Shown here piece after piece: positions 10,557-60,075 of a DNA stretch of 64,000 bases. The stretch is from a virus. The notes below the pieces were generated by a model. It had not been told where the DNA came from. It saw only the letters and a program-made list of their open reading frames with translations, and ran no database searches. The stretch lies in IMG/VR virus record IMGVR_UViG_3300008266_000002; one strand, given 5' to 3'. Position 1 is the stretch's first letter, and each line of letters starts with the position of its first letter. A program made the translations under genes and the position numbers.

Positions 10557-10558
10557 TT

Positions 10559-14076: not shown

Positions 14077-14079
14077 ACT

Positions 14080-14670: not shown

Positions 14671-14712
14671 AAAAATTTGCAAATTGTAATTTAAAAGTGT
14701 ATTATACATAAT

Positions 14713-16580: not shown

Positions 16581-16581
16581 T

Positions 16582-43641: not shown

Positions 43642-43655
43642 CAAAAACAACAACA

Positions 43656-45072: not shown

Positions 45073-45552
45073 ATGGAACTAAGAAAATTTATAAAGACCA
45101 CCATACGTGAATATTTGAATGAAAATATTCAAAATAATAAAAACATCAAAACAATAAATTTTGATGAATTATATCATGGAACAACAATGGATAGGTTTGA
45201 AGGTATATCAAAAAACGGATTTTCAATCGAAAAACAAGGTGAAAAAAGTGGTCATGGTAGTGTTCTTGGTGTGTCAATGACAGCCAATATAGAAATTGCA
45301 AAAGAACATGCAGAATGGGCGGTGGAAAAGTTTGGGGGTGAAGAATATATTGTAACTATTAATTCTAAATCATTAAAAATATTGAGTGGTAGTGATTTTG
45401 CACGTATAGATAATGACTACAATAAAGCGTTTATTTTATATAAAAATAGATTAATTGATGGTGTAGAGTTATGTGATATGGAAACTGGTGATGGATGTGA
45501 AGAATTTGAGGTTTTTGTATTTAATATTAATAAATTAAATCAATTACTTTAA
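45073..45552 (+). CDS. Putative ADP-ribosyltransferase-fold protein with shared leader
   Basis: Leader MELRKFIKTTIREYLNE; LYHGT...GF...GVSMT....A..HA...DG....E.EVFVF. Confidence 0.6.
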   Translation: MELRKFIKTTIREYLNENIQNNKNIKTINFDELYHGTTMDRFEGISKNGFSIEKQGEKSGHGSVLGVSMTANIEIAKEHAEWAVEKFGGEEYIVTINSKSLKILSGSDFARIDNDYNKAFILYKNRLIDGVELCDMETGDGCEEFEVFVFNINKLNQLL

Positions 45553-45717
45553 TTGTGTGGTGAAAAAATAAAACATAAAAATTATAACCACGAAACTTAA
45601 TACGAAGCGATAACGTAGCATTGCATATAACGTCCGATGATAAACAATCGTTTTAATGTTGTTTATCATTTGTTATATTTAGTTGAAAAATCATTTTACA
45701 AAAAAAAGAATAAAAAT

Positions 45718-45924
45718 ATGGAAAACAAAATTGAGTGGGGAAAATTAGGACCACATTACAAAAGAAAGTTTATGATTCCTGTTGGTCGTAGGAAGAGATG
45801 GTGGGAATTTTGGAAGAAGGATGAAAGTAAAAAGGCGATAGAAAAACTTATGTCTCAATATAAACAGGAATTAATATTGGGTGAGGATGGTGATATTTTT
45901 ATTCCATCAAATGACTCAAAATGA
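45718..45924 (+). CDS. Cassette A hypothetical protein
   Basis: MENKIEWG...KRWWEFWK...DIFIPS; stop lies within cassette-end repeat. Confidence 0.6.
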   Translation: MENKIEWGKLGPHYKRKFMIPVGRRKRWWEFWKKDESKKAIEKLMSQYKQELILGEDGDIFIPSNDSK

Positions 45925-46054
45925 TTTTTTTCAATTGAATATAACGTTGAGCGTATGTGCTGTGCAGCCTTGCACGTACTTTCAACTTACAAAACAGTTT
46001 ATTGGCTGCATAGCATATACGCATTATTGTGCGTAGTGCTTTAATAATTAAACA

Positions 46055-46240
46055 ATGAGAACACCAGACGAAATAATTGACGAAATAATGAAACTGGCAA
46101 TCGAAATTGATGCACTAAAAAAAATACATTCAGAATTGCATTCAGTTGACGATTCAGAAGAATGGGAACAATCGTTTTTAACTTTATCTGTTAAAAATTC
46201 AAGATTAGATGCATTAAGGTGGGTAATGTCTTTTTCTTAG
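46055..46240 (+). CDS. Cassette B hypothetical protein
   Basis: MRTPDEI...LRWVM; stop overlaps cassette-end repeat. Confidence 0.6.
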   Translation: MRTPDEIIDEIMKLAIEIDALKKIHSELHSVDDSEEWEQSFLTLSVKNSRLDALRWVMSFS

Positions 46241-46324
46241 CATTACGCACAACGTTTTCGGGCTTTGTGTCCGTGCCGTAATAGAAGTAGAAAAGTTCAA
46301 TTAATAACTAAAATTAAATAAAAG

Positions 46325-46666
46325 ATGAAAAGCTCAATTAAAGAACTAAAGCAGGCATGGCACAAAACCCGTGTTATGTGCAGCCTTTTTTACAAAAATG
46401 TTAAGAAAGACGTAAACGAAAGACGAGTTAAGTATTGGTTTCAACAATATTTTGAAGACAATGATTTGCACTCTGGAATATGGCAATTACACCATATCGG
46501 AGTTGTAACAAGTAAAACAGATATTGTTGTAACCATTACACTTGGAAGACCAGGATTATTGATTGGTAAAGGTGGACGAACTATTGACGAAATAACTAAA
46601 CGTCTTTCTGATTGGTTAGAAAAACCTGTCAAAATTAAGATAAATGAGTATAGTGTGTGGTCGTAA
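46325..46666 (+). CDS. Cassette C: KH-domain protein resembling the ribosomal protein uS3 KH domain
   Basis: VTITLGRPGLLIGKGGRTIDEI..RL....KPVKIKINE (GxxG loop). Confidence 0.75.
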   Translation: MKSSIKELKQAWHKTRVMCSLFYKNVKKDVNERRVKYWFQQYFEDNDLHSGIWQLHHIGVVTSKTDIVVTITLGRPGLLIGKGGRTIDEITKRLSDWLEKPVKIKINEYSVWS

Positions 46667-46721
46667 GGTTGCACATAACGGTTCTCAGATATACGCAGTT
46701 CTAACGCAAAATTAAATAGAT

Positions 46722-46907
46722 ATGAAAAACTTAAATAATACAGACAAAACTTCGGACAACGCAGAAAAAGAATTGCGTATATCTGATGTTAGCGGACAGT
46801 TAGTTGATTTTCTAACTTGGTATATACACGAATCAGAATTTAGTAAAGATACTTATAGTATTAAATTAATTGTTGATGAATATTTAAAATCAACTAATTT
46901 ACGCTAA
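46722..46907 (+). CDS. Cassette D hypothetical protein
   Basis: Starts in hairpin loop; stop TAA inside CGCTAAC. Confidence 0.6.
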   Translation: MKNLNNTDKTSDNAEKELRISDVSGQLVDFLTWYIHESEFSKDTYSIKLIVDEYLKSTNLR

Positions 46908-46944
46908 CTAGGATATACACACCACTCTATAACAACAAAAACAA

Positions 46945-47301
46945 ATGGAAATAAGAAGCATCACATACTCACAAGTGCAAGAGGAATTTAGTCATATCAA
47001 ACCAGACTTACTAGATACACAAGCCGTTTACTTTGGATGCTTTATAGATAATGAACTTGCTGGGATCGTATCATATGTAGAACACCCACACGTCATATAC
47101 CTTTGTCATGCATATGTGAAATCACAATACCGAAATGCAGGGATATATAAAATGCTATGGAATTACAGGGACATTCATATTAAAGATAGTAACAAACAAA
47201 CATATGCCCATTGCAATGTAGATAGCTTAAAGCACTTTATTAACAATGGGTATAGTATAGAAAAGGCCCTCTTTAAAGTAGTAAAGCACTCCTCCCAATA
47301 A
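46945..47301 (+). CDS. GNAT acetyltransferase
   Basis: YFGCF....LAGIV...AYVKSQYRNAGIYKML...N..S...F...GY. Confidence 0.8.
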   Translation: MEIRSITYSQVQEEFSHIKPDLLDTQAVYFGCFIDNELAGIVSYVEHPHVIYLCHAYVKSQYRNAGIYKMLWNYRDIHIKDSNKQTYAHCNVDSLKHFINNGYSIEKALFKVVKHSSQ

Positions 47302-47442
47302 TAACATAATAACCCAGTATAACACCCAGTATAGTAGAGGGGGGTCAATAAGGATAAACACTGCGTAATAGAATATCACTAATTAGCTTAGCGGTATATT
47401 TATAAGAGAAATGCATAACGGCTAAAAAAAGAACAACAGTAA

Positions 47443-47781
47443 ATGAAATCACAAACAACATCCAAAAGTAAACTGGCTGAGCTTCGAAAAATAATCAGGG
47501 AGCATGTACGTAAGGTAATACTCAAAGAGCAGGGATCTCTGTACCAAGAAAATAATCAAGAGGATATTATAGACTACTATAAGTCAAGAAACATCATATC
47601 GGTTGGCATGAAAACTAATTTACTATCTAACATGAAGAGTAGATATGATTTTAAGGTCAATGGTGATGAGATCTACTTTTTTGATAAGGGATTCCACTTC
47701 GCAACATTATTCAAAGAAGGTAGCTTTTATGAATTGAAGCATGATGGGACATTAGACCAGTATGGATGGAGAAAGCCTTAA
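47443..47781 (+). CDS. Hypothetical protein with shared leader (LRKIIREHVRKVILKE)
   Basis: Preceded by TATTTATA at 47397. Confidence 0.6.
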   Translation: MKSQTTSKSKLAELRKIIREHVRKVILKEQGSLYQENNQEDIIDYYKSRNIISVGMKTNLLSNMKSRYDFKVNGDEIYFFDKGFHFATLFKEGSFYELKHDGTLDQYGWRKP

Positions 47782-47811
47782 AGAGTACTTTTTATAATAG
47801 TATAAACAAAC

Positions 47812-47843
47812 AAGGGAGTAACAACAAACATTACTCCCTTTTT
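47812..47843 (+). terminator. Intrinsic terminator
   Basis: aagggagtaa/ttactccctt stem plus T-tract. Confidence 0.7.
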
Positions 47844-48120
47844 CTATGCCCCTATAGTGTAACAATAGCCCATAGTATATACGATAGTACTCAGTATAGT
47901 ATACAGTATAGTAGACGGGGTAATTGGGGTAGATATAAGATAGACACTTTTATAGCAGGTTACTTAGGTCGTATAAAATAGACATTATGTGGGGAGGTCC
48001 GGAAATGTCTATCTTAGAAAATTCGCGTTTTGATACACAAACACATCGAGACGCGAAATTTTTTTTGTATAGGAATCAACACTTTTTGTCGATCGTCTAC
48101 CCCCCGCTATCCACACAATC
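47844..48120. repeat. Non-coding boundary module 1
   Basis: cagtatagta repeats (47892, 47904, also 47327); CGCG hairpin 48022-48057; AA-T8-G-TATAGG-A-ATC-A-ACACTT 48057-48084; C-run. Confidence 0.6.
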
Positions 48121-48144
48121 AATACAAAAAATATTATAAAACCG

Positions 48145-48183
48145 TTGCCTACCCGGATCAAAGGCCGGACCTTTAGGTATAAT
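48145..48183 (+). promoter_or_regulatory. Strong early-type promoter
   Basis: aaccgTTG-N20-GACCTTTA-gg-TATAAT. Confidence 0.78.
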
Positions 48184-48199
48184 CAAAAATGAAACAGTT

Positions 48200-48451
48200 A
48201 TGAATATTAGAACATTTGATCGCCAAGCCCTAATGAGTGACAATACTAGAGAAGAGATCCTTGATATTATTTTTGAATTACAGATCCTTGACAACTGTAG
48301 ACCTAATGCCTTGATCAATATGATGTACGGGTTGTTTGATGGGTTTGACTATAGTGAGATGATTAGTAATCATTCCATCCTCGATGAGTTAGAAAGTGAG
48401 TTGGTTGATAGGATTGTTACTGTTGCTGAGACTATCCAAAAATATTTTTAA
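48200..48451 (+). CDS. Hypothetical early protein
   Basis: Single-gene unit behind promoter. Confidence 0.65.
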   Translation: MNIRTFDRQALMSDNTREEILDIIFELQILDNCRPNALINMMYGLFDGFDYSEMISNHSILDELESELVDRIVTVAETIQKYF

Positions 48452-48469
48452 AATAATTTTCCCAAACTG

Positions 48470-48507
48470 TTGCCTAGTGTTTAAAAAGGCGGATCTTTAG
48501 ATATAAC
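48470..48507 (+). promoter_or_regulatory. Strong early-type promoter
   Basis: aactgTTG-N19-GATCTTTA-ga-TATAAC. Confidence 0.75.
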
Positions 48508-48525
48508 AATTAAACAACATAAATT

Positions 48526-48741
48526 ATGAAAAACATTGAAGTAGGTTCCATCGTTAGATATGAAAATGGTTATTACAGAGTAAGTGCCGATAAAGGGTAC
48601 GGTGACAAGAGATGGGTTAACTTGAAGGCTGTATTTGGTAGTAAGATATACCACAAACAAGTTCCTGCCAGCCAGGTAGTTGAAGCTCAAGAAGAATGGT
48701 ATGCTAGTTGGACTAGATCAGAGTCTTACATGTGCATGTAA
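48526..48741 (+). CDS. Hypothetical early protein
   Basis: Single-gene unit behind promoter. Confidence 0.65.
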   Translation: MKNIEVGSIVRYENGYYRVSADKGYGDKRWVNLKAVFGSKIYHKQVPASQVVEAQEEWYASWTRSESYMCM

Positions 48742-48770
48742 AAATAATTTAAAAAAAATCCGGTTAACTG

Positions 48771-48809
48771 TTGCCAGTCTGGATAATGTACCCGATCTTT
48801 AGATATAAT
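48771..48809 (+). promoter_or_regulatory. Strong early-type promoter
   Basis: aactgTTG-N20-GATCTTTA-ga-TATAAT. Confidence 0.78.
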
Positions 48810-48829
48810 CAATTAAAAACGATAACATC

Positions 48830-49030
48830 ATGAAACAGTTAGTTAATAAAGCCCAGAAAGTATTTGATCAGTGTATTATGAATCTAAGACTGCAGGGTAA
48901 AAGTCACAAAGAAGCTCAGGACACTGTACTAGTGATTGTTAGTGAGTTCAAGAAGCCTAACATGTCTAAAGAGGACCTTGTTGATATGATCCTTACCCTT
49001 GAGATGACTTTCCTCGGAAAAAAGTTTTAA
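48830..49030 (+). CDS. Hypothetical early protein
   Basis: Single-gene unit behind promoter. Confidence 0.6.
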   Translation: MKQLVNKAQKVFDQCIMNLRLQGKSHKEAQDTVLVIVSEFKKPNMSKEDLVDMILTLEMTFLGKKF

Positions 49031-49049
49031 AAAAAAATCCGGTTAACTG

Positions 49050-49110
49050 TTGCCTACCGGTAAAAAAGGGTGATCTTTAAGTATAGGAAAAAAGGAAACG
49101 AGTTCTTTAA
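49050..49110 (+). promoter_or_regulatory. Early-type promoter plus boxA-like element
   Basis: TTG-N19-GATCTTTA; agttctttaa (49101-49110) just upstream of the tRNA-like gene. Confidence 0.6.
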
Positions 49111-49116
49111 TAATAC

Positions 49117-49186
49117 AGTCAGGTGGTGTAATTGGTAACATAGGTCTTAATTGGCTTGGATGCAGGTTCGAATCCTGTCCTGACTA
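49117..49186 (+). ncRNA. tRNA-like element with defective anticodon arm (70 nt)
   Basis: Acceptor agtcagg/cctgact, T-arm gcaggttcgaatcctgt; weak aggtc/ggctt stem closes a 6-nt loop (ttaatt). Confidence 0.75.
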
Positions 49187-49227
49187 CAAAATTAACAATA
49201 TTCACACACACAATAAAATTTAAGTCT

Positions 49228-50388
49228 ATGTCAAACGTTATTATTGCTAAAGTACAAATGGGCGCTAATGCCAAAGGTGGTCAATCTGTTAGAGCTTATG
49301 AAGCTGTTACTGGAATGGACATCACAAAAGAGATAGTTTATGCCACTTTGAAGAACGCCTACGATGCTGGTAATTGGTTAGAAAACTCTGCTGGTAAGTG
49401 GAAGCAAGTAAGTATTGCTGATGCAGAGCGCTTCTTGAAAGACCTTGAGAATCCCGTCAAATCTTCCGTCTCACAAGAGAAAAATGAAATGGCGATGTTT
49501 CTATCCACTTGCTCTGAGAAACGCCCAGAGAGCTTATTCTGTGAAGATTTAACTTGGAAATTCTTATGCCGCTCAGTGATGAGAGGTAAGAACATATTGC
49601 TTACAGGTCCTACTGGTTGTGGTAAATCACAGACTGCCATTGCGGTAGCAAAGGCCTTAGATAAACCCTTCTTCTATGTTAACTTGGGTGCTACTCAGGA
49701 TCCAAGAGGTACTCTAATTGGTAATACTCACTTCAGTAAAGATGCTGGTACTTACTTCAACGAGTCTGCCTTTGTTAAGGCAATACAAACCCCTGACACT
49801 GTGATACTTCTAGACGAGGTGTCAAGAGCACATCCAGAGGCTTGGAACATTCTTATGACAGTACTTGATCCAGGTCAAAGATACTTGAGATTAGATGAGG
49901 CTGTTAACACTCCTACAGTAAAGGTAGCAGAAGGTGTAAGCTTCATTGGTACTGCAAACATCGGTAACGAGTATACTGCAGTAAGAGTAATGGACAGAGC
50001 GTTACTTGATAGGTTTGTAATCGCAGAGATTCCTTACTTGACTATCGCTCAAGAGACCCAGTTAATCAGTCAGTTATACCCTACCTTGGATGTCACTCTT
50101 GCTAAGAATCTTGCAGAGATTGCTACTCTTACTAGAGCTGAGGTGAAGTCTGACAGTGCTAGAATACAGACTCCAATCTCCACAAGATCGATAGTAGAGA
50201 TGGCTGGTTTGATTAACGATGGCTTCTCCCTTACAGAATGTGCCGAGGTTAGTATCTACCCACTATACTCTCAGGATGGTGGTCTACAATCAGAAAGGAC
50301 CTTTGTAAAGCAATTGGTACAGAAGTTTGTTCCAGATGGAACTAGTGATAGCTTGATGGGTGATGAGAGTGTTGAGAATCCTTTCTAA
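49228..50388 (+). CDS. MoxR/CbbQ-family AAA+ ATPase
   Basis: Walker A GPTGCGKS, Walker B ILLDEVSR, FIGTAN.G..Y, ALLDRF, ISTR; start MSNV downstream of the tRNA-like element. Confidence 0.93.
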   Translation: MSNVIIAKVQMGANAKGGQSVRAYEAVTGMDITKEIVYATLKNAYDAGNWLENSAGKWKQVSIADAERFLKDLENPVKSSVSQEKNEMAMFLSTCSEKRPESLFCEDLTWKFLCRSVMRGKNILLTGPTGCGKSQTAIAVAKALDKPFFYVNLGATQDPRGTLIGNTHFSKDAGTYFNESAFVKAIQTPDTVILLDEVSRAHPEAWNILMTVLDPGQRYLRLDEAVNTPTVKVAEGVSFIGTANIGNEYTAVRVMDRALLDRFVIAEIPYLTIAQETQLISQLYPTLDVTLAKNLAEIATLTRAEVKSDSARIQTPISTRSIVEMAGLINDGFSLTECAEVSIYPLYSQDGGLQSERTFVKQLVQKFVPDGTSDSLMGDESVENPF

Positions 50389-50414
50389 TTGATAACCAAT
50401 AAAGTATACAGCAT

Positions 50415-50711
50415 ATGAAACAGACTATAGATAAAGAATTCCTCAAGGTGAAGCGTTTTGTACAGAAGCGCTTCCCAGGAGCGAGAACGGTAGCCAAGCC
50501 AAGTGGAGACACAATGTACTATCAGGTAGTGGATGGCAATGGGTACGCAGTAGTGGATCCCGCATTATTGATCCCACCAGCTACAACGGTCAAACAGGCA
50601 TGGACCAATGCGAAGTATAGTGCATGGTTCTCTAACATGATCCACAAGTCCAACATAGCATTTAGCGACGAGAAAATCATCAAGAAGCTTGCTCGCGAAT
50701 CCGGAGAATAG
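50415..50711 (+). CDS. Hypothetical protein
   Basis: 98 aa ORF between ATPase and VWA genes. Confidence 0.6.
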   Translation: MKQTIDKEFLKVKRFVQKRFPGARTVAKPSGDTMYYQVVDGNGYAVVDPALLIPPATTVKQAWTNAKYSAWFSNMIHKSNIAFSDEKIIKKLARESGE

Positions 50712-50744
50712 TGAAAAATTTTTTTAAAAAAAATCGATAAACTG

Positions 50745-50782
50745 TTGTCTATTGTTTAGAAAGGGTGATCTTTAGGTATAAT
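50745..50782 (+). promoter_or_regulatory. Strong early-type promoter
   Basis: TTG-N19-GATCTTTA-gg-TATAAT; near-identical to 56224. Confidence 0.78.
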
Positions 50783-50796
50783 CAATTATCACACAC

Positions 50797-52965
50797 ATGA
50801 AAGCTAACAAATCAATCTTCACAAGAAAAACCGCCATCTCGGGGTTCAATACTAAGAAAAACTACTCTTCCTTTTGGATGGATGACGATAGTGATATCAC
50901 CAGTAGATACGGTGGTCTTAGTTCTGAGGTAAGAAGTAGTAGTGACCTATTCAAAGTTATCAAGCTTAACAACTATCGTAGAGCGATAACCAACTTCGTG
51001 AAGATCGTTACTAACATGGATATTCCAGTTACTTGGTTCAGTGGTGGTTCTTATACCGATAGCAAGAGTATCAACCTAACCTCTGACATTAAAGACAACA
51101 ACTTTGACGTGACTGTCGGTCTTGCACTTCACGAAGCTTCTCACATCAAACTTACTGATTTCGGGATACTTCAGGACTTGTATGCAAACGATATTGCAAT
51201 AGTAAATGACCTCGAATCTAAACACCAACGCATGTGTAAGGAGTTAGTTAAGGAGATGCTTAACTGGGTTGAGGACAGACGTATTGACCACTACATCTTC
51301 AGTACTTCTCCTGGATACAAAGCTTACTATCACAAGTTGTATGACTACTACTGGAATGATAAGAATGTTAACAAAGGTTTCAAGAGTACTCAGTTTAATG
51401 ATCCTACCAGTATCCAGAGCTATGAGTTCCACATCATTAACATGTTGAACCCATTATTCGATAGCAAAGCACTTCCAGGTCTAGAAGAGATTACAAAGCT
51501 TATTAACGTAAGAAACATTAGCAGACTAAAGAGTACTTCCGAAGCTCTAGAGGTTGCAGTAGGAGTAGTTGACATTATCTTAACTAACGTTGCCTCTGCC
51601 AAAGCCGAAGGTACAATGGCTCAGGAAGGTGAGAGTGAAGAGTCACAGGAATCACAAGAGCAGGGAGAAGGAGAAGGTCAAGGTGGTAGTGGTGAAGGAG
51701 CAGAGCAAAAGGAAGGTGCAGGTGAGGGTCAAGAGCAAGAGAACACTGAGCTAAGTGATAAGGAGATGAGAGAAGTACAAAAGGCTCTTGATAAAATGAG
51801 AGACTTCTTGAATGGCAAGACTGACAAGAAACGTACTACTAAAGGGCTACAAAAGCAACTAGACAGCACAGCTAACGAGAACATGCAGATACAAGCAGTA
51901 GGTGGTAGTGATGGAGTCAAGAGTATGTCAAGCATCATGATGGATGGTATAACTGGTTCATTATCACAGCTGTTAGCTAACAGTGAGGTATTGAAGGAGT
52001 TAAGAGATGAGAGATACAAACTTCCATACGGTGAGGGACTAAAGAGAGCAGAATTGAACAAGGAGATTGAAAGACTAAGCGAAGCTGTGGAAACCCATGC
52101 AATGAATAGATATTTCCAGGCAAGTACATGGACCAGTAAAGAAACTAAAGAGGCAGTACAGAAGGGACTTGAGATGGGAGCTTTACTTGGTAAGAAGCTA
52201 CAACTACACAACGAAAGTAGAGAGAAGGTAGACAACAGACTTAGAAGTGGCAAAATCGATAACAGACGTCTTGCACATGCAGGTTATGGTATCGAGAGTG
52301 TGTTCCAACAAATCACTATCGATAAGTACAAGAAAGCTAACCTACACATCTCTTTGGATGGTAGTGGTAGTATGAATGGAAGATGTTGGAACTCAGCAGC
52401 ACAAATGACAGCAGCAATCGGTAAGGCAATCAGCTACACCCAGAACATAGAACTACAGGTATCAATCAGAGCAACGGATACAGCAGGTAACGGTGACATA
52501 CCAGTAGTAATCAACATCTATGACTCTCGCAAGAACAACCTTAATCACTTAGTGAAAGCACTTACTAACTACCATTGTGGCTCTAACACTCCAGAAGGAT
52601 TATGCTTCGAAGCAATGCACAAGCAACACCAAATCCTCTCTGGGACTAGTGACATGGATTCCTACTTCTTAAACATTAGTGATGGAATGCCAGGTATGGG
52701 TAACTACGGAGGATACGAAGCAGTAAGACATACAGCTAAGTGGGTTAACAAAATCAAGGCAGACCTTAATGTAAAGGTGCTAAGCTTCTTCTTAGATGAT
52801 AGCTATGGTAGTGAAGATATGGCACAGATGATTAAGAGATTTAACGGCGCATATGGAGCTGGGAACTCATTCAGACAAATGTACGGAAAGGATGCAGCAG
52901 CAGTTAATCCAAGCTCAGTGCTAGACATCGCAAGAGAACTTAACAAGAAGTTCATGAGCAAATAA
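50797..52965 (+). CDS. VWA-domain partner of MoxR ATPase (CobT-like), N-terminal HExxH and acidic linker
   Basis: LALHEASH...EDRRI; E/G/Q-rich linker; SG.ID..RL; MIDAS LDGSGS, TPEG, ISDGMP. Confidence 0.9.
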   Translation: MKANKSIFTRKTAISGFNTKKNYSSFWMDDDSDITSRYGGLSSEVRSSSDLFKVIKLNNYRRAITNFVKIVTNMDIPVTWFSGGSYTDSKSINLTSDIKDNNFDVTVGLALHEASHIKLTDFGILQDLYANDIAIVNDLESKHQRMCKELVKEMLNWVEDRRIDHYIFSTSPGYKAYYHKLYDYYWNDKNVNKGFKSTQFNDPTSIQSYEFHIINMLNPLFDSKALPGLEEITKLINVRNISRLKSTSEALEVAVGVVDIILTNVASAKAEGTMAQEGESEESQESQEQGEGEGQGGSGEGAEQKEGAGEGQEQENTELSDKEMREVQKALDKMRDFLNGKTDKKRTTKGLQKQLDSTANENMQIQAVGGSDGVKSMSSIMMDGITGSLSQLLANSEVLKELRDERYKLPYGEGLKRAELNKEIERLSEAVETHAMNRYFQASTWTSKETKEAVQKGLEMGALLGKKLQLHNESREKVDNRLRSGKIDNRRLAHAGYGIESVFQQITIDKYKKANLHISLDGSGSMNGRCWNSAAQMTAAIGKAISYTQNIELQVSIRATDTAGNGDIPVVINIYDSRKNNLNHLVKALTNYHCGSNTPEGLCFEAMHKQHQILSGTSDMDSYFLNISDGMPGMGNYGGYEAVRHTAKWVNKIKADLNVKVLSFFLDDSYGSEDMAQMIKRFNGAYGAGNSFRQMYGKDAAAVNPSSVLDIARELNKKFMSK

Positions 52966-52969
52966 TAAC

Positions 52970-53335
52970 CAATCATATAGGGGGCCTACCTAAAGTGTGT
53001 GTGATAGGGGTAGGCATACATTAGGGGTGCCATAGGGTACCCCTCCCCATATAGTAACCCGTATATACGCAGGGGATCCCTCCCATGTTTTTAGCGTTAA
53101 AACCGGTGTTTTTAGGGGGGGTATAGGGTGCGATAATTACGTGAAAACCGAGAAGGGAAGGTCGATATGCCGCCAGCTAAACGCGTATATATTGCGCGCA
53201 TAATTTTTTTTCCTATAGGCGATCGACACTTGGGGTACACTGCGTGTAAGTGTATATCCTCCCCCCTATGATGCCTATTACCCCCTACTATCCCCCCACT
53301 ACACCTACTACCCCCCCTATTACCCCCTTTCTACT
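52970..53335. repeat. Non-coding boundary module 2 (GC-rich; G-runs switching to C-runs)
   Basis: Hairpins from 52984; AA-T8-CC-TATAGG-CG-ATC-G-ACACTT at 53202-53231 matches 48057-48084; C5-C7 runs 53261-53327. Confidence 0.65.
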
Positions 53336-53390
53336 TGACAACTGACAACGCAACAAGGGACTATTTATAAGGGCAATACACACAGTAAAA

Positions 53391-54203
53391 ATGAAAACAC
53401 TAAAACGCATATTACAAGAATTAGACTACGGGAACACATTGTTTGGGGATCCAAATCCGGAAATCAGTCTTGATATCAACACACCAGCATATACTGACTA
53501 TCTCAAGAGTATTGGGGTAGATGCGGAAGAAAACACACCGGAAGAAAACAAGATCTTTGATGAACTTGCAAGTTATTTACGTTATCCAAAATCATCGCGA
53601 CACTCACAGACTGAACTCGTTAAGTATCTTAAACAATTGTTACCGCTGAAAAGCAAGTTTCCGTTAATACTTGATCCATTACAGGACCGTGAGGTAAACA
53701 ATGATGGCTATGTGTACAGAGGGGCTACAGTAGACACTAAGGATCTTATAGCTCTTGTGAAAGCAGCGAAACTAGATTGGTCTAGTCAAGATACAAGTGA
53801 TTTTGCTAGTATCAATGTGAATGGGAAAACAGTGAGTAGCAGCTCAACAAGAGGCTTTTTATCTTTTACATTCAAAAGACGTATAGCTGAGACATTTGCA
53901 ACTAATACAGAGAAAAGTCAATTATCAAGTAGCGATTTAGCTCGTAGATATCCAGTAGTCCTGCAGTGCAGTATAAACAACCTGAGTGACAAGTTAATAC
54001 TCACTCCATCCCTATTAAATGCCATACAATACATAGAGAATGAAACTCTATATCTAGACACACAAATCCCATGTGACAAAATACTAATCGCACCTCCAAT
54101 GGCGTTTGATAACTTAGGCTCGCCAAGTGATCTTGAGGACAAGTTTGAAGATGATTTACCACCAATATTATGGGATTTTCTTCGAGCAACTAACTATGTA
54201 TAA
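53391..54203 (+). CDS. Putative R-S-E ADP-ribosyltransferase-fold protein with shared leader
   Basis: Leader MKTLKRILQE; VYRG...FLSFT....AE.FA...ENE; TATTTATA at 53362. Confidence 0.6.
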   Translation: MKTLKRILQELDYGNTLFGDPNPEISLDINTPAYTDYLKSIGVDAEENTPEENKIFDELASYLRYPKSSRHSQTELVKYLKQLLPLKSKFPLILDPLQDREVNNDGYVYRGATVDTKDLIALVKAAKLDWSSQDTSDFASINVNGKTVSSSSTRGFLSFTFKRRIAETFATNTEKSQLSSSDLARRYPVVLQCSINNLSDKLILTPSLLNAIQYIENETLYLDTQIPCDKILIAPPMAFDNLGSPSDLEDKFEDDLPPILWDFLRATNYV

Positions 54204-54218
54204 TAAACACAAATCATA

Positions 54219-54575
54219 ATGAAACTATCACAATTCAAACAAATTATTAGAGAAGAAATCCGTAAGGCTATTAACGAAGCAGGCGGACTAATGGGAACGC
54301 TAGGTGGTGAAACTCCAATGCAAGATTTCGAAATGAGAAAGAAGGTTGTTGAGCCAACACTCGGACCTAACTACAATGCTTACATCATGTTTAAAGATCC
54401 GGAGTACAACCAAATGAAAGCTAAATATCCATACACCGTAACGGAAAAATGGAAACCTCTTTATCGTTCTAGCAACTATCAAGGATACGCTAGCGTGTCT
54501 CCCGATGGCAAAGTGATCCGTGCTGCCATACTAGACAAAGGTGGTATAGTTGGCGCCTTTTATATTAAAAAATAA
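54219..54575 (+). CDS. Hypothetical protein with shared leader (MKLSQFKQIIREEIRKAINE)
   Basis: Leader motif. Confidence 0.65.
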   Translation: MKLSQFKQIIREEIRKAINEAGGLMGTLGGETPMQDFEMRKKVVEPTLGPNYNAYIMFKDPEYNQMKAKYPYTVTEKWKPLYRSSNYQGYASVSPDGKVIRAAILDKGGIVGAFYIKK

Positions 54576-54587
54576 AAAACAAACACT

Positions 54588-55019
54588 ATGAAACTAACGC
54601 AACTAAAAAAGATTATAAAAGAGGAGATCAAAAAAGTATTATCTGAGACAGTAGATAATATGCCACAATTAATTAAAGAGATGCCATATACTATAACAAG
54701 CGAAGGGATGTTTATGGCCGCCTATTTTGGTGAAAATGCCCTACGTTATAGATCAAGGGAATATCCAAATATTAATGATGGTGATGAGGTATTAGAAATG
54801 CATATCGATATTCAACCTAAGGATCAAGGAAAAGGTCTAGCTGAAAAAATGATCAAGGTATTTTTATATAAAGAAGGTGGTGTTGCTTTTTTTAACCATA
54901 ATCGCATAACTAATCCCGCCGTATATAAGGTGTTTGATAAAATTGCAACAGACCCTAAATGGTTAGTGCAAGAAGAAGAAGATGGATCACCAGCTGGAAT
55001 AACAATACAAGAAAAATAA
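54588..55019 (+). CDS. GNAT-like protein with shared leader (MKLTQLKKIIKEEIKKVLSE)
   Basis: HIDIQPKDQGKGLA acetyl-CoA binding motif A. Confidence 0.65.
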   Translation: MKLTQLKKIIKEEIKKVLSETVDNMPQLIKEMPYTITSEGMFMAAYFGENALRYRSREYPNINDGDEVLEMHIDIQPKDQGKGLAEKMIKVFLYKEGGVAFFNHNRITNPAVYKVFDKIATDPKWLVQEEEDGSPAGITIQEK

Positions 55020-55033
55020 AAACAACAAACACT

Positions 55034-55165
55034 ATGAAACAAGTTATCGCAATCGTATTAGTCGCTGCATTACTAACTGCATGCAAAACGGCACAACCAT
55101 GTCCTTCTTTCAAGGACCAAGCTGACAAATGCCATACATCACAAAAACCTAAATGTTGCAAGTAA
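55034..55165 (+). CDS. Small lipoprotein
   Basis: MKQVIAIVLVAALLTAC lipobox. Confidence 0.6.
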   Translation: MKQVIAIVLVAALLTACKTAQPCPSFKDQADKCHTSQKPKCCK

Positions 55166-55169
55166 CCAT

Positions 55170-55658
55170 ATGAACCTACTACCATTACTTGAAGACTTAC
55201 GTGCCTGGTTTGGATCGGGTGGTAAAGGAGGTGTAGGTGGTGGTGGATGGGATCGCTACAATACTAGTGGAGATCGAGTTGGCAAATGTGGGGATGCTAA
55301 AGAGGGTGATCCATACTCCGCTTGTTTAAGTAAGGAAAAAGCTCGTAAGTTAGGCAAAGCTGGTAGAGCTGCATTTGTGAAAAGAAAAAGAGCAGCTCAA
55401 AACAAAGGTGGCGATGCCAAAAAAGGTGGAGAACGTACCAAAGGTCAAAAACCAATCAAAGTGTCAACTGGCACTAGTGAATCCACATTATTACGCATCA
55501 ACATGCTACTTGAAAAAAACACCCCAACTGATCCACAAAAATGGTCATATTACAAATCACAAGCTAAAAAGAAATTTGATGTGTATCCAAGTGCATATGC
55601 AAATGCATGGGCAGCCAAAAAGTATAAAGCAGCTGGTGGTGGTTGGAGAAAAAATTAA
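55170..55658 (+). CDS. Conserved basic phage protein (two modules, each preceded by LLE)
   Basis: LLEDLRAWF...KCG...ACL; LLEKN.PT.P..W....AK.KFDVYPSAYANAWA.K.YK..GG.W. Confidence 0.7.
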   Translation: MNLLPLLEDLRAWFGSGGKGGVGGGGWDRYNTSGDRVGKCGDAKEGDPYSACLSKEKARKLGKAGRAAFVKRKRAAQNKGGDAKKGGERTKGQKPIKVSTGTSESTLLRINMLLEKNTPTDPQKWSYYKSQAKKKFDVYPSAYANAWAAKKYKAAGGGWRKN

Positions 55659-55680
55659 TATTTATTAGCAAAATCATCAC

Positions 55681-55926
55681 ATGAAACTATCAAGAATTAG
55701 ACTACAAGAAATCGCTGGCTTAGAGCCGGATAACATTGAGGAAACACGTGCTTTCACTCTTCATGAATTAGAGCAAGATGCAATGGAATTGCTCGCAAAA
55801 ATAGGTATGAAAAACCCAACAAACGACCAATTGAAATCCGTAGTGCAAATGATAGCTGACCTCATTAAAAAGAGCAATGCTGGTGTAATGTTAGCACCGA
55901 GTGTACAATTTGAATCACGTGACTAA
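55681..55926 (+). CDS. Hypothetical protein with leader (RLQEIAGL)
   Basis: Preceded by TATTTAT at 55659. Confidence 0.6.
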   Translation: MKLSRIRLQEIAGLEPDNIEETRAFTLHELEQDAMELLAKIGMKNPTNDQLKSVVQMIADLIKKSNAGVMLAPSVQFESRD

Positions 55927-56095
55927 ACTCATGGACATATTGCAAGGCTATATTAAAGTTAAACACTTTGATCGTGCAAAGTATTATGAAAAACACATAC
56001 GCAATTTGCTACCATCATCATTCACAATTACACGCAAAGATAACAAAATCATCATAACAGTCAAGTAATAATACCCCAACCCCCTGTCAACAATG

Positions 56096-56119
56096 AACCC
56101 GCTTTATGCGGGTTTTTTT
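56096..56119 (+). terminator. Intrinsic terminator
   Basis: aacccgc/gcgggtt stem plus T-tract. Confidence 0.85.
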
Positions 56120-56223
56120 GGTTTGCTTTGTTATTAAAAATGCTAAGCTGTGAGTTAAAAAATGTTAAGATTGGGGAGGAGGCTCGCGCCGAAAAAAAAA
56201 TTTAAAAATAATCGTGTAAACTG

Positions 56224-56261
56224 TTGTCTATTGTTTAGAAAGGGGGATCTTTAAATATAAT
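56224..56261 (+). promoter_or_regulatory. Strong early-type promoter
   Basis: TTG-N19-GATCTTTA-aa-TATAAT. Confidence 0.75.
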
Positions 56262-56281
56262 TAAAAGATAACGATAATCAT

Positions 56282-56485
56282 ATGAAAACTAACAAATTCA
56301 ACTACAACAAATCAAGTCACTACGATTTCAAATCCAAAGAATTAGAGTTTGAATTAGGGCATGAAACTAAGGTAAAATCTTCTGACCCTGTTTTGCGTTT
56401 TGGTAAATATCAAGGACAGAGATTGTCTGAAACTCCAATGTCTTATCGTATTTGGTTAAAGTCACAATCTTGGTGGAAAGGATAA
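56282..56485 (+). CDS. DUF3820-like small protein
   Basis: LRFGKYQG..L...P.SY..WL. Confidence 0.65.
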   Translation: MKTNKFNYNKSSHYDFKSKELEFELGHETKVKSSDPVLRFGKYQGQRLSETPMSYRIWLKSQSWWKG

Positions 56486-56504
56486 AAAAAAATTGCACAA
56501 ACCG

Positions 56505-56543
56505 TTGCCTCAACGGTAAAAAAGGAGGACCTTTAGATATAAT
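56505..56543 (+). promoter_or_regulatory. Strong early-type promoter
   Basis: aaccgTTG-N20-GACCTTTA-ga-TATAAT. Confidence 0.75.
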
Positions 56544-56570
56544 TAAAAAACACTTTAAAATTTATCACAC

Positions 56571-56915
56571 ATGAAAAACTTAATTCTTGCTTTTTTGCTT
56601 TTTGCTAGCACTGTTTTATCTGCTCAAACTTACTACTGTGTACAGATTATGAGTACCCAAAATCCACAACTTTTAACTAAAGAACATGTGGAATTTACTG
56701 GTGACCCTGCCTTCTTTGAAATGGTCGTAGTTAACAATGTTACATACTATAGAGTAATGTTTGTATACACTGATGAGATTGAAGCTAAAGTTACGTTAGA
56801 TTTAGTGTCTGGAGCAGGTTATCAGTACTCGCTTATATGCACTAGAACTAAGGAGCAAATTGCGAAAATGATACCCGTATTTACGCTTAGTATGGTGAAT
56901 CCCGATAACCAATAA
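56571..56915 (+). CDS. Secreted protein, possibly SPOR-like
   Basis: Signal peptide ending LSA-Q; YCVQI...YYRV......EA...L.....GY. Confidence 0.5.
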   Translation: MKNLILAFLLFASTVLSAQTYYCVQIMSTQNPQLLTKEHVEFTGDPAFFEMVVVNNVTYYRVMFVYTDEIEAKVTLDLVSGAGYQYSLICTRTKEQIAKMIPVFTLSMVNPDNQ

Positions 56916-56950
56916 TTTATATTTTTTAACTCTTTAAACTAGTATTTTTT

Positions 56951-57163
56951 ATGAGAATTGTTGATGCTTTTTGGCTTGGTGGTGTTGGTTTTGTTAAGGT
57001 TAGTAACAACTTTGAAACCAAGGTTTTGGTTGGTGTTGTACAAGGAGTAAATGAGACGTATGACACAGAATTTATCGCTAAAAACGGTGTTATTGTTCCT
57101 CCAGGTTCCTTGTTAAGATTCTTGGAAAATGACTCTTACAAAGATGAATACGTACCCGAATAA
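56951..57163 (+). CDS. Hypothetical phage protein
   Basis: 70 aa ORF; GV..G.NE..D...IA..G. Confidence 0.55.
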   Translation: MRIVDAFWLGGVGFVKVSNNFETKVLVGVVQGVNETYDTEFIAKNGVIVPPGSLLRFLENDSYKDEYVPE

Positions 57164-57194
57164 CTCTTTTTTTCACACACACAAATATTTATAT

Positions 57195-57446
57195 ATGACT
57201 AAGTTTTTTGCATTTATCACTACTACTTTATTACTTATTTCATGTGGTAAATCTTCCCAACTTGAAGAGTACACTCGTGACGTAAAAAAAGGCGTAATTG
57301 TTGAGATTTTTCGTAAAAATCCTTGTGGAATTCATGAGGAAATTAGTCCAAAATTTTATGCAATTACACATGAAAGTGATACGGTAACTTGCACTCGTTA
57401 TAGTAAAATTGGAGATTCGGTATACTTTATAAAATATAGCAAATAA
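57195..57446 (+). CDS. Small lipoprotein
   Basis: MTKFFAFITTTLLLISC lipobox. Confidence 0.55.
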   Translation: MTKFFAFITTTLLLISCGKSSQLEEYTRDVKKGVIVEIFRKNPCGIHEEISPKFYAITHESDTVTCTRYSKIGDSVYFIKYSK

Positions 57447-58201
57447 TGAAATTATCACAACTGAAGAAGATTATTAAAGAGGAGATCGCAAACGTAATGC
57501 AAGAGGGAGTTTATGATCCAGGAATACTAAAAGCTGTGTTCTTAGCAGGAGGTCCTGGAAGTGGAAAATCTACAGTAGGAAACGCTCTATTTGGTGTGAC
57601 AAAAGCAGGGTTTTCTATGGAAGGTTTGAAGAATGTAAACAGTGATAAATTCTTTGAATTTTTGCTCCAAAAAGGTGGATTTTCATCTAATTTGGCAGCT
57701 GCCTCAAAGGAGGATTTTTTAAAGATTACTACCGGTGAAACATCGCCTAGAGAGCGTGCAAAAGTAATGTCAAATAAGGCGTATGCTTCCTACTTAGTAG
57801 GTCGTTTAGGAGTGTTGATTGACGGTACTGGGGATGATCCTAATAAGTTAATAACTAAGGCTGAAATGCTAAAAAACGACTTTGGATACGATGTCTGTAT
57901 GGTGTTTGTAAACACACCTTTGGAGAAGGCTCAAGAGCGTAATTTAGGTCGTGATAGAAAATTACCTGCCAGTACAGTTGAGGAGATTTGGAATGCTGCT
58001 CAAGCCGCTAAAAAGGTGTACGAAGGTTACTTTGGAAACGCGTTTATGGAAGCTATAAACGACAAGGATTCTGCACCTGGCCAACCTATTTCAATCGATC
58101 CTCAAGTGGAAAAATTTGCACGTTCTTTCATGCGTAAACCAATACAAAATCCAGTTGGGAAAGAGTGGGTATCTCAGCAATTAGCCGCTAAAAAACGATA
58201 A
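57446..58201 (+). CDS. P-loop kinase (zeta-toxin/AAA_33-like) with shared leader
   Basis: Leader MKLSQLKKIIKEEIANVMQE; AVFLAGGPGSGKS, VNSD, IDGTG, A.ERN..R.R. Confidence 0.8.
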   Translation: MKLSQLKKIIKEEIANVMQEGVYDPGILKAVFLAGGPGSGKSTVGNALFGVTKAGFSMEGLKNVNSDKFFEFLLQKGGFSSNLAAASKEDFLKITTGETSPRERAKVMSNKAYASYLVGRLGVLIDGTGDDPNKLITKAEMLKNDFGYDVCMVFVNTPLEKAQERNLGRDRKLPASTVEEIWNAAQAAKKVYEGYFGNAFMEAINDKDSAPGQPISIDPQVEKFARSFMRKPIQNPVGKEWVSQQLAAKKR

Positions 58202-58854
58202 TGATAAAACTCAAAAAACTACTACGAGAACTAGCTTATTACGACCTTACCAGTGAAGATCCTGATAAGGTCTTTGCTCGTAGTAATGATGAGTTTGGAC
58301 TGCTGATTTCCCGTGATATTGTTAATGCCTTCAAGAGAGGTGATAAGAAATATTACAAAGAAATCTACTTGGATAGAGCTGGGGACTATGCTGAATTTCA
58401 AGTCAAAGCTCGCTTTATAAAACGTCCAAAACAAGAGTATAGCCACTCGATTGAGGGTGGTGGTAGTTCTGAATATCTAGAGTTAATTATTGAATACAAT
58501 CCTAAGATGTTTCCAGCTGCAATGAATAAATTAATTGCTGAAATTAAAGAAACAATTGTGCATGAATTAGAACACGTAGGTCAGCAAAACTTTGAGGATA
58601 TGTTTGTAGTTGCTGGTCGTAATCACCATGATTATGCTCAATACCTTGTAGATGCTGAGGAAGTTCCTGCCTTTGTTAAGGGACTTATAAAACGTGCTAA
58701 AGTTACAAAACAATCCCTTGATGCAACAATGGAAGATTGGTATCGTGATAATATAAGGCAGTTTGAATTCCATAATGTTAGTTGGCCGTCAATTAAAAAA
58801 GTGTGGATGGATTGGGCTCAAGCAAACAAAGATAAAATTAAAAAATTTGCATAA
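58201..58854 (+). CDS. HExxH zincin-like protein with shared leader
   Basis: MIKLKKLLRE; ETIVHELEH..Q...Y....EEVPA. Confidence 0.65.
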   Translation: MIKLKKLLRELAYYDLTSEDPDKVFARSNDEFGLLISRDIVNAFKRGDKKYYKEIYLDRAGDYAEFQVKARFIKRPKQEYSHSIEGGGSSEYLELIIEYNPKMFPAAMNKLIAEIKETIVHELEHVGQQNFEDMFVVAGRNHHDYAQYLVDAEEVPAFVKGLIKRAKVTKQSLDATMEDWYRDNIRQFEFHNVSWPSIKKVWMDWAQANKDKIKKFA

Positions 58855-59396
58855 TGATAAAGTTGATGTCCCTTCTTAGAGAGGCTTTTTCTGATGACTA
58901 TAATAAGAACGTGTGGGTTGAATTACCTCGCCAAAAGGTCTTAGATTATGCTGATAATATTGCGGATCTAATATCAAATGCTTACGCTGCAAAGGGTGGT
59001 AATTTTGAGATTCAAACAGGCGCCGATTTAAAAAATTCAGATGTAACTTACTGGGTTGCTAATGACCTAGATCAGGATCCTGAAGCAGATGTTGTGGTGG
59101 GAGGTAAGAAAACTTCAGCTGGCACAAAAATGACAATGTTAGGTCAAGATGGCTCTGCAGAAGCAAAAAAAGAGGCTATTGTTAAGATGGTTCGGTTAAT
59201 GAAACAGAGAGGCTTTTATGCTGAGATGGATCCAGATTTAGCTGAGAAACTAGGCTTACCGCATGTTGATGATGAGGCTACTATACGTAAAGTAATTAAT
59301 AAAGATCTTACAATGAATCCTGATGGTAGCTATACAAGACTAATATCAGGTACCCACAAACATATAAAAGTATTAGTTGGTATTCCAAAGGTATGA
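58854..59396 (+). CDS. Hypothetical protein with shared leader (MIKLMSLLRE)
   Basis: Leader; LI..AYA..GG. Confidence 0.65.
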   Translation: MIKLMSLLREAFSDDYNKNVWVELPRQKVLDYADNIADLISNAYAAKGGNFEIQTGADLKNSDVTYWVANDLDQDPEADVVVGGKKTSAGTKMTMLGQDGSAEAKKEAIVKMVRLMKQRGFYAEMDPDLAEKLGLPHVDDEATIRKVINKDLTMNPDGSYTRLISGTHKHIKVLVGIPKV

Positions 59397-59992
59397 TAAG
59401 ACTTACAAACATATTAAACGAAATCGGAGAAGGTGTTAAGCCATTCCCTTTTAAAGTATGGACTGGTAGTTCAACTCCTGAATCATGGCTGAAAAAAATC
59501 TATGCGGACGATATGCTAAACCGACTTGGATTAGAGCCACCAATCGCTTATTTGTTTAGTAGTGATCAGGCAGATTATGTAGTCTACATAAATGGTGATG
59601 CAGCTAGTGAAAGCTTCCTCAAAGATATGGGAAAAGTTCCTGAGGATGCAACACTCGATCATCAGTATGAAATTAGACTTGAAGTAGCTTTTGATGTTAA
59701 GGGCTCCGGAGAACAAAAACTCACCAACTTTGGTGAGCAGTTTCGTGTTATATCTACAGTAACCGAGTGTGTAGTTGATACAGTGAAAAAACTAGTACAG
59801 GATAAGAATATATGGGTAAAAGAGGTTCACATTGGGCCTAAAAAGGAAAAAGGTGAAGGCTTACATAATGCTGATGAAACAAAACGTGGTCGCTTATATT
59901 TAGCTTATATCAATAAACAACTATCACGTTTTGAAGGTAATTGGAGAGTGCGTATTGATCGGCATGAATTTGTCTTAATAAGAGAATCATAG
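59393..59992 (+). CDS. Hypothetical protein with shared leader (MIRLTNILNE)
   Basis: Leader; TN.GEQFRV.STV...KRGRLY..Y. Confidence 0.65.
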   Translation: MIRLTNILNEIGEGVKPFPFKVWTGSSTPESWLKKIYADDMLNRLGLEPPIAYLFSSDQADYVVYINGDAASESFLKDMGKVPEDATLDHQYEIRLEVAFDVKGSGEQKLTNFGEQFRVISTVTECVVDTVKKLVQDKNIWVKEVHIGPKKEKGEGLHNADETKRGRLYLAYINKQLSRFEGNWRVRIDRHEFVLIRES

Positions 59993-60003: not shown

Positions 60004-60075
60004 ACGGTTAGGACCGTTTGCCGTTACGGCAATTTTTAACCACTCAAGTGTCGCTACCTGGGTGGTTATTTTTTT
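60004..60075 (+). ncRNA. Candidate structured RNA: hairpin cluster ending in a terminator
   Basis: acggt/accgt, ttgccg/cggcaa, taaccactca/tgggtggtta plus T7. Confidence 0.45.

Follow-up and report, generated by a model that had tools for sequence, protein, structure and literature searches.

The window analysed in this study, a 64,000-nucleotide stretch of viral DNA (IMG/VR record IMGVR_UViG_3300008266_000002), corresponds to bases 1–64000 of the 164,316-bp JGI metagenome contig Ga0114879_102056, as identified by an exact-protein match. Twelve open reading frames (ORFs) on its plus strand, most of them clustered between positions 45,073 and 59,992, carry short leader peptides ending in Leu/Ile/Met-x-Glu. 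These leaders are probably capsid-targeting propeptides of the kind known from phage T4, borne by a hypervariable set of packaged proteins. The phage is a T4-like myophage with a host in the Flavobacteriia (Bacteroidota), and its nearest cultured relatives by protein are Flavobacterium phage immuto (NC_055915) and Microcystis phage Mel-JY01. The contig was examined up to 123,057 bp, and genome-wide counts of leaders and promoter-like boxes cover this first 123 kb. The 12 genes, named below by their first nucleotide, are as follows.

45073 to 45552, plus strand: 159-aa protein; long leader at residues 1–17 (nt 45073–45123), ending in L-N-E.
47443 to 47781, plus strand: 112-aa protein; long leader at about residues 11–29 (nt 47473–47529), ending in L-K-E.
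53391 to 54203, plus strand: 270-aa protein; short leader MKTLKRILQE at residues 1–10 (nt 53391–53420), in the T4 register, ending in L-Q-E.
54219 to 54575, plus strand: 118-aa protein; long leader at residues 1–20 (nt 54219–54278), ending in I-N-E.
54588 to 55019, plus strand: 143-aa protein; long leader at residues 1–20 (nt 54588–54647), ending in L-S-E.
55170 to 55658, plus strand: 162-aa basic, Gly/Lys-rich protein; possible 8-aa leader MNLLPLLE (nt 55170–55193), ending in L-L-E, proposed from sequence only.
55681 to 55926, plus strand: 81-aa protein; 10-aa leader MKLSRIRLQE (nt 55681–55710) with Ser at position 4, ending in L-Q-E.
57446 to 58201, plus strand: 251-aa P-loop kinase; long leader at residues 1–20 (nt 57446–57505), ending in M-Q-E.
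58201 to 58854, plus strand: 217-aa protein with an HExxH motif; short leader MIKLKKLLRE at residues 1–10 (nt 58201–58230), in the T4 register, ending in L-R-E.
58854 to 59396, plus strand: 180-aa protein; short leader MIKLMSLLRE at residues 1–10 (nt 58854–58883), in the T4 register, ending in L-R-E.
59393 to 59992, plus strand: 199-aa protein; short leader MIRLTNILNE at residues 1–10 (nt 59393–59422), in the T4 register, ending in L-N-E.
6596 to 7003, plus strand, outside the cluster: 135-aa protein; long-like leader at residues 1–17 (nt 6596–6646), ending in L-S-E before D-V-Y.

All 12 starts were found where the original prediction had placed them, and they are unambiguous, each ATG being the first Met and lying 1–21 codons past an in-frame stop. 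Its statement that the leaders are N-terminal holds for 11 of the proteins and fails for 47443, in which the leader begins at about residue 11. Two classes were distinguished, a long amphipathic class of 17–20 aa (45073, 47443, 54219, 54588, 57446, and 6596) and a short class of 8–10 aa (53391, 55170, 55681, 58201, 58854, and 59393). The leaders are basic, with a hydrophobic moment at about or above the 95th percentile of background. Secretion signal peptides were ruled out, the leaders being charged throughout and without a hydrophobic core. Behind the leaders the bodies are unrelated, as had been predicted; no pair was matched by BLASTP at E<0.05.

In T4, the first 10 residues of IPIII form the targeting sequence; targeting depends on positions 4 and 7 and processing on positions 8 and 10 (PMC9026906). 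The sequence, MKTYQEFIAE, was verified in the T4 genome. Exchange of its Glu for Asp blocks processing in T4. Because profiles built from the window's own leaders were overfitted, and a 10-residue profile could not separate signal from noise in immuto, a fixed pattern and an independently trained profile were used. The pattern, ^M..[hyd]..[hyd][LIVM].E (hyd, hydrophobic), was set beforehand from the published T4 mutagenesis (PMC9026906). It matched 4 N-termini in the window against 0.29 expected (14-fold, P=2e-4) and 6 against 0.36 expected over the 123 kb of contig, and it was enriched at N-termini relative to internal positions of the same proteins. Exact fits were given by 53391, 58201, 58854, and 59393, and 55170 and 55681 conformed only loosely. 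The second instrument was a hidden Markov model (HMM) of the long class, whose training set consisted solely of leaders from beyond the window, namely those of immuto and of the contig's head- and baseplate-module genes. In immuto, leader-bearing proteins are encoded, for example, at 24569, 103366, 112261, 113188, and 123355. It scored 24.8 bits for 54219 (E-value 1e-7), 20.0 for 57446, 19.5 for 54588, 12.8 for 47443, and 7.6 for 45073, the best score on reversed proteins being 4.7 bits; 6596 was missed (1.6 bits). The match began at residue 10 in 47443 (residues 10–26) and at residue 1 or 2 in the other four, at residue 1 in 54219 and spanning residues 2–18 in 45073.

The count of leaders that the original prediction had proposed gave about 22 candidate genes in the first 123 kb of the contig. 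Within the window they are clustered, 11 of the 12 lying among 30 of the 120 plus-strand genes (P=5e-7). The resemblance among the leaders might in principle reflect not a selected peptide but the composition of an AT-rich genome, or else the repetition of a DNA cassette comprising promoter, ribosome site, and first codons. With 30–42% G+C the genome does favour Lys, Ile, Leu, and Glu, and the short-class profile taken alone gives noise-level scores in immuto. Conservation is nevertheless at the peptide level: 4–5 of 12–15 identical residues, about a third, differ in codon, and the DNA upstream of the leader genes is not conserved, being at most 50% identical. The leaders are also enriched against internal positions and reversed sequences, and they are kept in homologues down to 29–40% identity. 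Such an artefact is thus very improbable, and it is largely refuted by these observations. The weakest members of the set are 6596, 55170 with its 8 aa, and 55681, and the last two cannot stand alone on statistics. The length of the 55170 leader is comparable to that of the 6–7-aa propeptide of T4 Alt and the 8-aa leader of the kinase of pelagiphage HTVC008M.

The prohead protease, the finding of which had been suggested as a check, was located on the same contig. A gp21-family Peptidase_S77 (PF03420) is encoded at 114,679–115,296 (91.8 bits against a cut-off of 27, E=5e-26), and the contig also encodes a portal protein (Portal_T4, E=4e-67) and a Gp23 capsid protein (E=3e-74). The head module of immuto is the same. 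In metagenomes, a scan found more than 548 relatives of the S77 protease; it returned only immuto-like loci, and the locus of this contig was not among them. Leaders of both types occur on small genes among the portal, protease, scaffold, and capsid genes and just 5′ of the terminase gene, and a profile built from these head-module leaders finds the leaders of the window. It is known that gp21 cuts after L/I-x-E (PMC9026906). The contig's capsid protein has L-K-E55 in front of the conserved VRR / QPMN region, at a place corresponding to the L-T-E65 cleavage site of T4 gp23.

Comparison with homologues suggests that the leader can be separated from the body and ends at the Glu, since leaders vary in length and type and end in [LIVM]-x-E at one fixed junction in four cargo families, those of 58201, 57446, 54588, and 53391; the 6596 module behaves likewise. 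In the 58201 family (78 homologues), most members have an MIKLK-type 10-mer, and one subclade of about 40% identity has a 20-aa leader of the long class; both types end in [LI]-x-E followed by a small residue. The 54588 family (18 homologues) mostly has short or long leaders of differing lengths that end in [LIV]-x-E at one column, three of its gene calls starting inside the body. The 6596 body matches, with 41% identity (E=4e-20), a module located inside an immuto protein of 841 aa encoded at 114006, and there the module follows L-N-E, which stands before D-D-Y. Because of this homologous junction, 6596 was retained in the set in spite of its low profile score. These comparisons point to two interchangeable leader types, the 10-residue type in the T4 register and a 17–20-residue amphipathic helix with no T4 counterpart.

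Three observations on related leaders were made in passing. In the 148-kb metagenome contig Ga0480356_0000010, three tandem genes (1303–2719) share a further leader type of about 22 aa (M-K-K-[VI]-I-R-L-T-E-[ST]-D-L ... V-I-x-E) ahead of different bodies, 7 kb from a long-leader homologue of 58201. The 841-aa immuto protein (114006–116531) has a short leader of its own, two copies of the 6596 module, of which the better matched is the one preceded by L-N-E, and a tail that is acidic and rich in Gly and Glu; its appearance is that of a polyprotein cargo. Immuto also has a third leader type, M-E-N-F-D-L-K-K-F-L running to L-L-(K)-E, which was not seen in the window; it occurs on the otherwise different genes 1803, 103806, 117631, and 118632, and loosely on 125241, two of them just before the terminase gene.

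For the kinase family of 57446, an exhaustive search returned 1,853 relatives among representative proteins. In 57446, M-Q-E stands directly before the conserved G-V-Y-D-P. Its orthologues in HTVC008M (8-residue leader, L-K-E), Methylophilales phage Melnitz (9 residues, L-Q-E), and Ralstonia phage RsoM2USA (10 residues, L-L-E) have leaders that directly precede the same conserved G-[VLI]-x-D segment. Junctions were counted in the 124 top representatives having a P-loop. Glu stands directly before the conserved Gly in 98 of them, 97 of which have L/I/V/M/F two residues earlier, and the residue between the hydrophobic residue and the Glu is free; this pattern matches the gp21 logo. The kinase domain is N-terminal in 65 proteins, with a preceding stretch of 4–40 residues that includes both leader types, and internal in 33 proteins, with the same motif ahead of the domain.

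A homologue of this kinase, gp53 of Atu_ph07, has been detected in virions, and this is the strongest support from another phage for a destination in the head. Atu_ph07 is a T4-related jumbo phage with a gp21 homologue, and its gp53 is a protein of 778 aa (87.07 kDa) in which the kinase domain lies between V-T-E252 and L-T-E458. In the published virion proteome, gp53 was identified by 31 unique peptides with 45.5% coverage and was listed at 87.08 kDa; its abundance peaked in gel band 9, which contains proteins of 20.8–22.0 kDa (PMC6102473 Table S5). The fragment bracketed by the two motifs has a predicted mass of 23.0 kDa, and gp53 appears to be processed in virions. The leader-and-body architecture, the presence of the protease, and the presence of one homologue in virions are demonstrated. 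The published proteome of RsoM2USA, which covers ten bands only, does not include the kinase.

Several observations weigh against capsid targeting and cleavage. The 10-residue profile alone cannot tell true short leaders from noise, and [LIVM]-x-E is a short and common motif, occurring at about 2–6 sites per 100 residues. Because conservation extends beyond E10 in the 53391 family, its leader is perhaps not an independent module. The motif that kinase-family members keep before internal domains could belong to the fold and not to a cleavage site, and Asn replaces Glu at the junction in 18 of the 124 kinase representatives, mostly with Arg at the hydrophobic position; the covarying residues suggest a clade with a different processing rule or none. 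The leader HMMs gave at most 0.8 bits on T4 gp67, gp68, gp21, gp22, and the gp23 N-terminus. A leader-like gene, 75517, is found just before the baseplate gene gp25, and four leader genes lie in an operon (57446–59992) without the TATTTAT box described below. No virion proteome was found in the literature for this phage or for immuto.

On the basis of such points, the helices could be uncleaved and unrelated to head targeting, serving another common purpose such as oligomerisation, partner binding, or keeping toxic enzymes inactive, with [LIVM]-x-E marking merely the end of a helix. The amphipathic character and high hydrophobic moment of the leaders fit this, as do the internal kinase motifs and the subclade in which Glu is exchanged for Asn. 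Left unexplained, however, would be the exact T4 register, the co-occurrence with a gp21-family protease, the ending of leaders of 4–40 residues at one junction, the replacement of short by long leaders on the same cargo, and the migration of the Atu_ph07 homologue in virions at the size of a fragment. We consider uncleaved helices quite unlikely. The failure of the long class to resemble T4 leaders or core N-termini means that it would work like a targeting sequence without being one by descent.

The gene before gp25 (75517–75975, 152 aa) stands behind a TATTTATA box and has a long-class-like leader, and its immuto counterpart at 81525 is alike. Either the baseplate cluster harbours a head cargo gene here, or the helix also serves some other function.

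With regard to the cargo, the sequences suggest that it includes a P-loop kinase, an HExxH protein, and two proteins resembling ADP-ribosyltransferases (ARTs), and that it is apparently enzymatic. The kinase 57446 is the sole firmly identified member, the prediction of a P-loop kinase being borne out by Pfam Zeta_toxin (27.4 bits, cut-off 22.3) and CPT (22.5 bits, cut-off 22) and by a Walker A motif, GGPGSGKS; it has no sequence relative in the Protein Data Bank (PDB).

The protein 58201 had been called a zincin. Its H121, E122, H125, and E154, an HExxH and a downstream Glu, are invariant in 45 sequences; a matching fold was not obtained. In the AlphaFold2 (AF2) model (predicted local distance difference test score, pLDDT, 85.9), residues 1–9 are below 50 and the fold begins at residue 12, so that the leader is modelled as disordered. 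The best Foldseek match was at E=0.04, minigluzincins appeared at E=0.1–0.4 only, and none was convincing; a VIA fold search found no PDB fold match, the best Z of 5.5 being to unrelated helical proteins. No match was obtained when 58201 and its long-leader relative were compared with cultured phages by tblastn.

For the two proteins predicted to have ART-like folds, 53391 and 45073, motifs and look-alikes were found and profile matches above cut-off were not. The body of 53391 has an ordered R / S-x-S / E-x-E triad, and R110, S152, E216, and E218, together with M1, L4, I7, and E10 of the leader, are invariant in six sequences (53391 and five homologues) down to 31% identity. Its look-alikes in a language-model atlas are viral ADPrib_exo_Tox / Mod_ADP_RT clusters (score 0.90), which serve as a lead only. 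None of the six members had a Pfam match at E<=10, the family profile found nothing among PDB sequences or in the N-terminal domain of Atu_ph07 gp53, and the AF2 model was unusable (pLDDT 41). The body of 45073 is possibly an ART of the H-Y-E type, with Pfam PARP (PF00644) at 17.2 bits, below the cut-off of 26.7, and atlas look-alikes that all belong to the ART clan (ART-PolyVal, PARP, and Arr-ms; scores 0.87–0.89).

The assignment of 54588 to GNAT was not upheld: no Pfam match was found even at E<=1, and none is precomputed for its 18 homologues. Weak matches were obtained for 47443 (phrog_16997) and 55170 (DUF5872 and two PHROGs). For 58854 there was no Pfam or PHROG match and for 59393 no Pfam match.

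The set differs between related phages, as expected of the swappable cargo that had been proposed. None of the 11 genes of the 45–60-kb cluster has a homologue in immuto, and 6596 alone of the 12 does. This bears on an account in which prohead targeting and removal of the leaders do take place, the proteins being assembly or core components, or DNA-condensing internal proteins, that are used or degraded in the head instead of being injected as effectors. The same leader types are present on small acidic or basic head-module proteins (115298, 115644, 113930, and 119767), which resemble in position gp67 and gp68, T4 core proteins that are cleaved and largely lost (PMC9026906). The 55170 protein is basic and rich in Gly and Lys, and most bodies lack a recognisable enzyme family. 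Against this account, the P-loop kinase is a clear enzyme cargo, other cargos have invariant catalytic-looking motifs, the set is hypervariable between relatives, unlike assembly proteins, and the packaged Alt and internal proteins of T4 are ejected (PMC9026906, PMC12373910). We regard this account as unlikely. Each computational check suggested with the original prediction turned out in its favour. The original reading of the leaders as capsid-targeting signals is supported by the protease on the contig, the leaders in the head module, the conserved junctions, the hypervariable cargo, and the homologue in virions.

A further feature of the leader genes is a sequence box upstream, recorded as follows.

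53362 to 53368, plus strand: TATTTAT(A) box, candidate late promoter; other copies precede leader genes at 45040, 47397, and 55659.

The first 123 kb contains 37 copies of TATTTAT on the plus strand and 18 on the minus strand. Within 60 nt upstream of a start codon there are 24 copies, including those of portal, neck, tail/tail-fibre, and baseplate genes, and leader genes follow 8 of these 24, where 3.1 would be expected (P=0.004). Upstream of 45073, 47443, and 53391, TATTTATA is found at distances of 33, 46, and 29 nt, respectively, and TATTTAT is 22 nt upstream of 55681. The 53391 gene is the first of a unit extending over 53391–55658, and the unit of 55681 is closed by a terminator-like hairpin at 56095–56115. 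The prediction that most of the leader genes are behind TATTTAT holds for the transcription units of 7 of the 12, and not for 6596 or the operon 57446–59992, the last gene of which, 59393, is followed by a terminator-like hairpin at 60018–60032. Directly 5′ of the TATTTATA box of the 53391 unit, at 53240–53335, unusual C-rich CCCCC(T)A-like repeats were noted, in contrast with the otherwise AT-rich genome.

From the T4 precedent and the data above, we infer targeting, cleavage, timing, and injection in this phage as follows. The leader genes would be expressed late, together with the structural genes. The basic amphipathic leader would bring the precursor into the scaffolding core of the prohead, as in T4, and the S77 protease would cut after the Glu of [L/I/V/M]-x-E, as the specificity of the family and the conservation of the junction suggest, releasing the mature protein in the head. 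By analogy to the T4 internal proteins and Alt, the mature cargo would be retained in the DNA-filled head and ejected with the DNA, after which it might act in host takeover or against host defences.

The principle is established textbook T4 biology and is not new. As in the T4 internal proteins, the N-terminal leader comprises 10 residues, hydrophobic at positions 4, 7, and 8 and with Glu at 10. It is all that the otherwise unrelated proteins have in common, and a gp21-family protease is encoded in the same genome; the repertoire is hypervariable between related phages, as at T-even internal-protein loci (PMC3012670, PMC12373910). The present case differs in its Bacteroidota host, in its about 22 candidates in 123 kb as opposed to 3 in T4, and in its cargo, which looks enzymatic, whereas that of T4 consists of small inhibitors; it is known here through sequence analysis alone. 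T4 Alt, a packaged and injected ART, is likewise an enzyme cargo, and its N-terminal propeptide, which ends in I-T-E, is very short (PMC9026906), but it has about 680 aa compared with 270 aa for 53391, and hhalign gave a probability of 0.15% for its relation to the 53391 family.

Other systems share parts of this arrangement. In phiKZ, 201phi2-1, and SPN3US, many inner-body or ejection proteins are likewise processed by a diverged gp21 homologue, which cuts behind the Glu of a three-residue motif and, in some of them, more than once (PMC9026906, PMC5694885). Their motif, however, is S/A-x-E, their propeptides are long with no short common leader, and they belong to a different lineage. Polyvalent proteins, described by Iyer et al. 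in 2017 from phages and conjugative elements, are predicted to be packaged and injected and have ART, metallopeptidase-like, and other enzymatic domains, with at least two disparate effector domains per polypeptide (PMC5512222). Relatives of two window cargos similarly sit in larger proteins, namely Atu_ph07 gp53 and the 841-aa protein of immuto. In contrast to polyvalent proteins, the window genes encode 81–270 aa with a single body and a leader each, and the proposed processor is the prohead protease and not an embedded zincin. What is new is the lineage and host phylum, the scale of about 22 genes, the second, helix-type leader interchangeable with the short one, the apparently enzymatic cargo, and the link to polyprotein forms in larger phages.

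Phylogenetically, the capsid protein is 54% identical to that of Mel-JY01, 53% to that of immuto, 38% to that of Rhodothermus phage RM378, and about 28% to those of T-even-like phages, and a glycosyltransferase is 47% identical to its immuto counterpart. Based on these protein identities, the window represents a deep branch of the T4 superfamily. No close DNA relative was found, megablast of the 15-kb leader-gene region giving no match to cultured phages, and an exact-pattern scan of viral_contigs gave 0 matches. Up to 123,057 bp, the contig further carries tail, baseplate, and terminase genes and a gene for a scaffold-like acidic protein.

Other features of the window, at 1287–3217 and 7055–23765, include phage-encoded GroES/GroEL and about 17 kb of clustered genes for glycosyltransferases, aminotransferases, and epimerases. 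Synteny with immuto was seen for this sugar-gene cluster, which suggests that the phage directs glycan synthesis. At 49228–52965, a gene for a MoxR/CbbQ-type AAA+ ATPase (386 aa, with AAA_5 and CbbQ_C matches; start called at ATG 49228) is followed by one for a 722-aa protein with an acidic Gly/Glu-rich linker, and this pair separates the two groups of leader genes. ARAGORN identified a tRNA-Gln at 43571–43642 and a tRNA-like element at 49117–49187, the latter with an abnormal call of a two-base anticodon loop and overlapping a TTG-started ORF at 49156.

Injected proteins outside T4 and a few jumbo phages are known from virion proteomics only. We tentatively propose that the T4 superfamily, including T-evens, marine Kyanoviridae, immuto-like phages of Bacteroidota, and Rak2-like jumbo phages, shares a packaging code that can be read from sequence. 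It is conceivable, with chances a little short of even, that a basic amphipathic helix ending in [L/I/V/M]-x-E directs head loading and release by the S77 protease, with leader types interchangeable. To a similar, provisional degree, jumbo phages may join several cargos in polyproteins, with cleavage at this same motif. If such a code is true, the packaged and injected proteome would be predictable from sequence, and more than one-tenth of the genes of this phage would encode packaged proteins, including kinases and ART-like and metalloprotease-like enzymes. Since injected proteins act ahead of all phage gene expression, they are leading candidates for roles in counter-defence and host takeover. 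Such a code would also draw attention to enzyme families with possible functions early in infection, namely those of the kinase, the HExxH protein, and the ART-like proteins. The leaders, including the second, helix-type one, would also provide new tags for loading foreign proteins into phage heads. Should the leader grammar hold, genome and metagenome sequences of an abundant lineage of aquatic phages would reveal packaged cargo directly.

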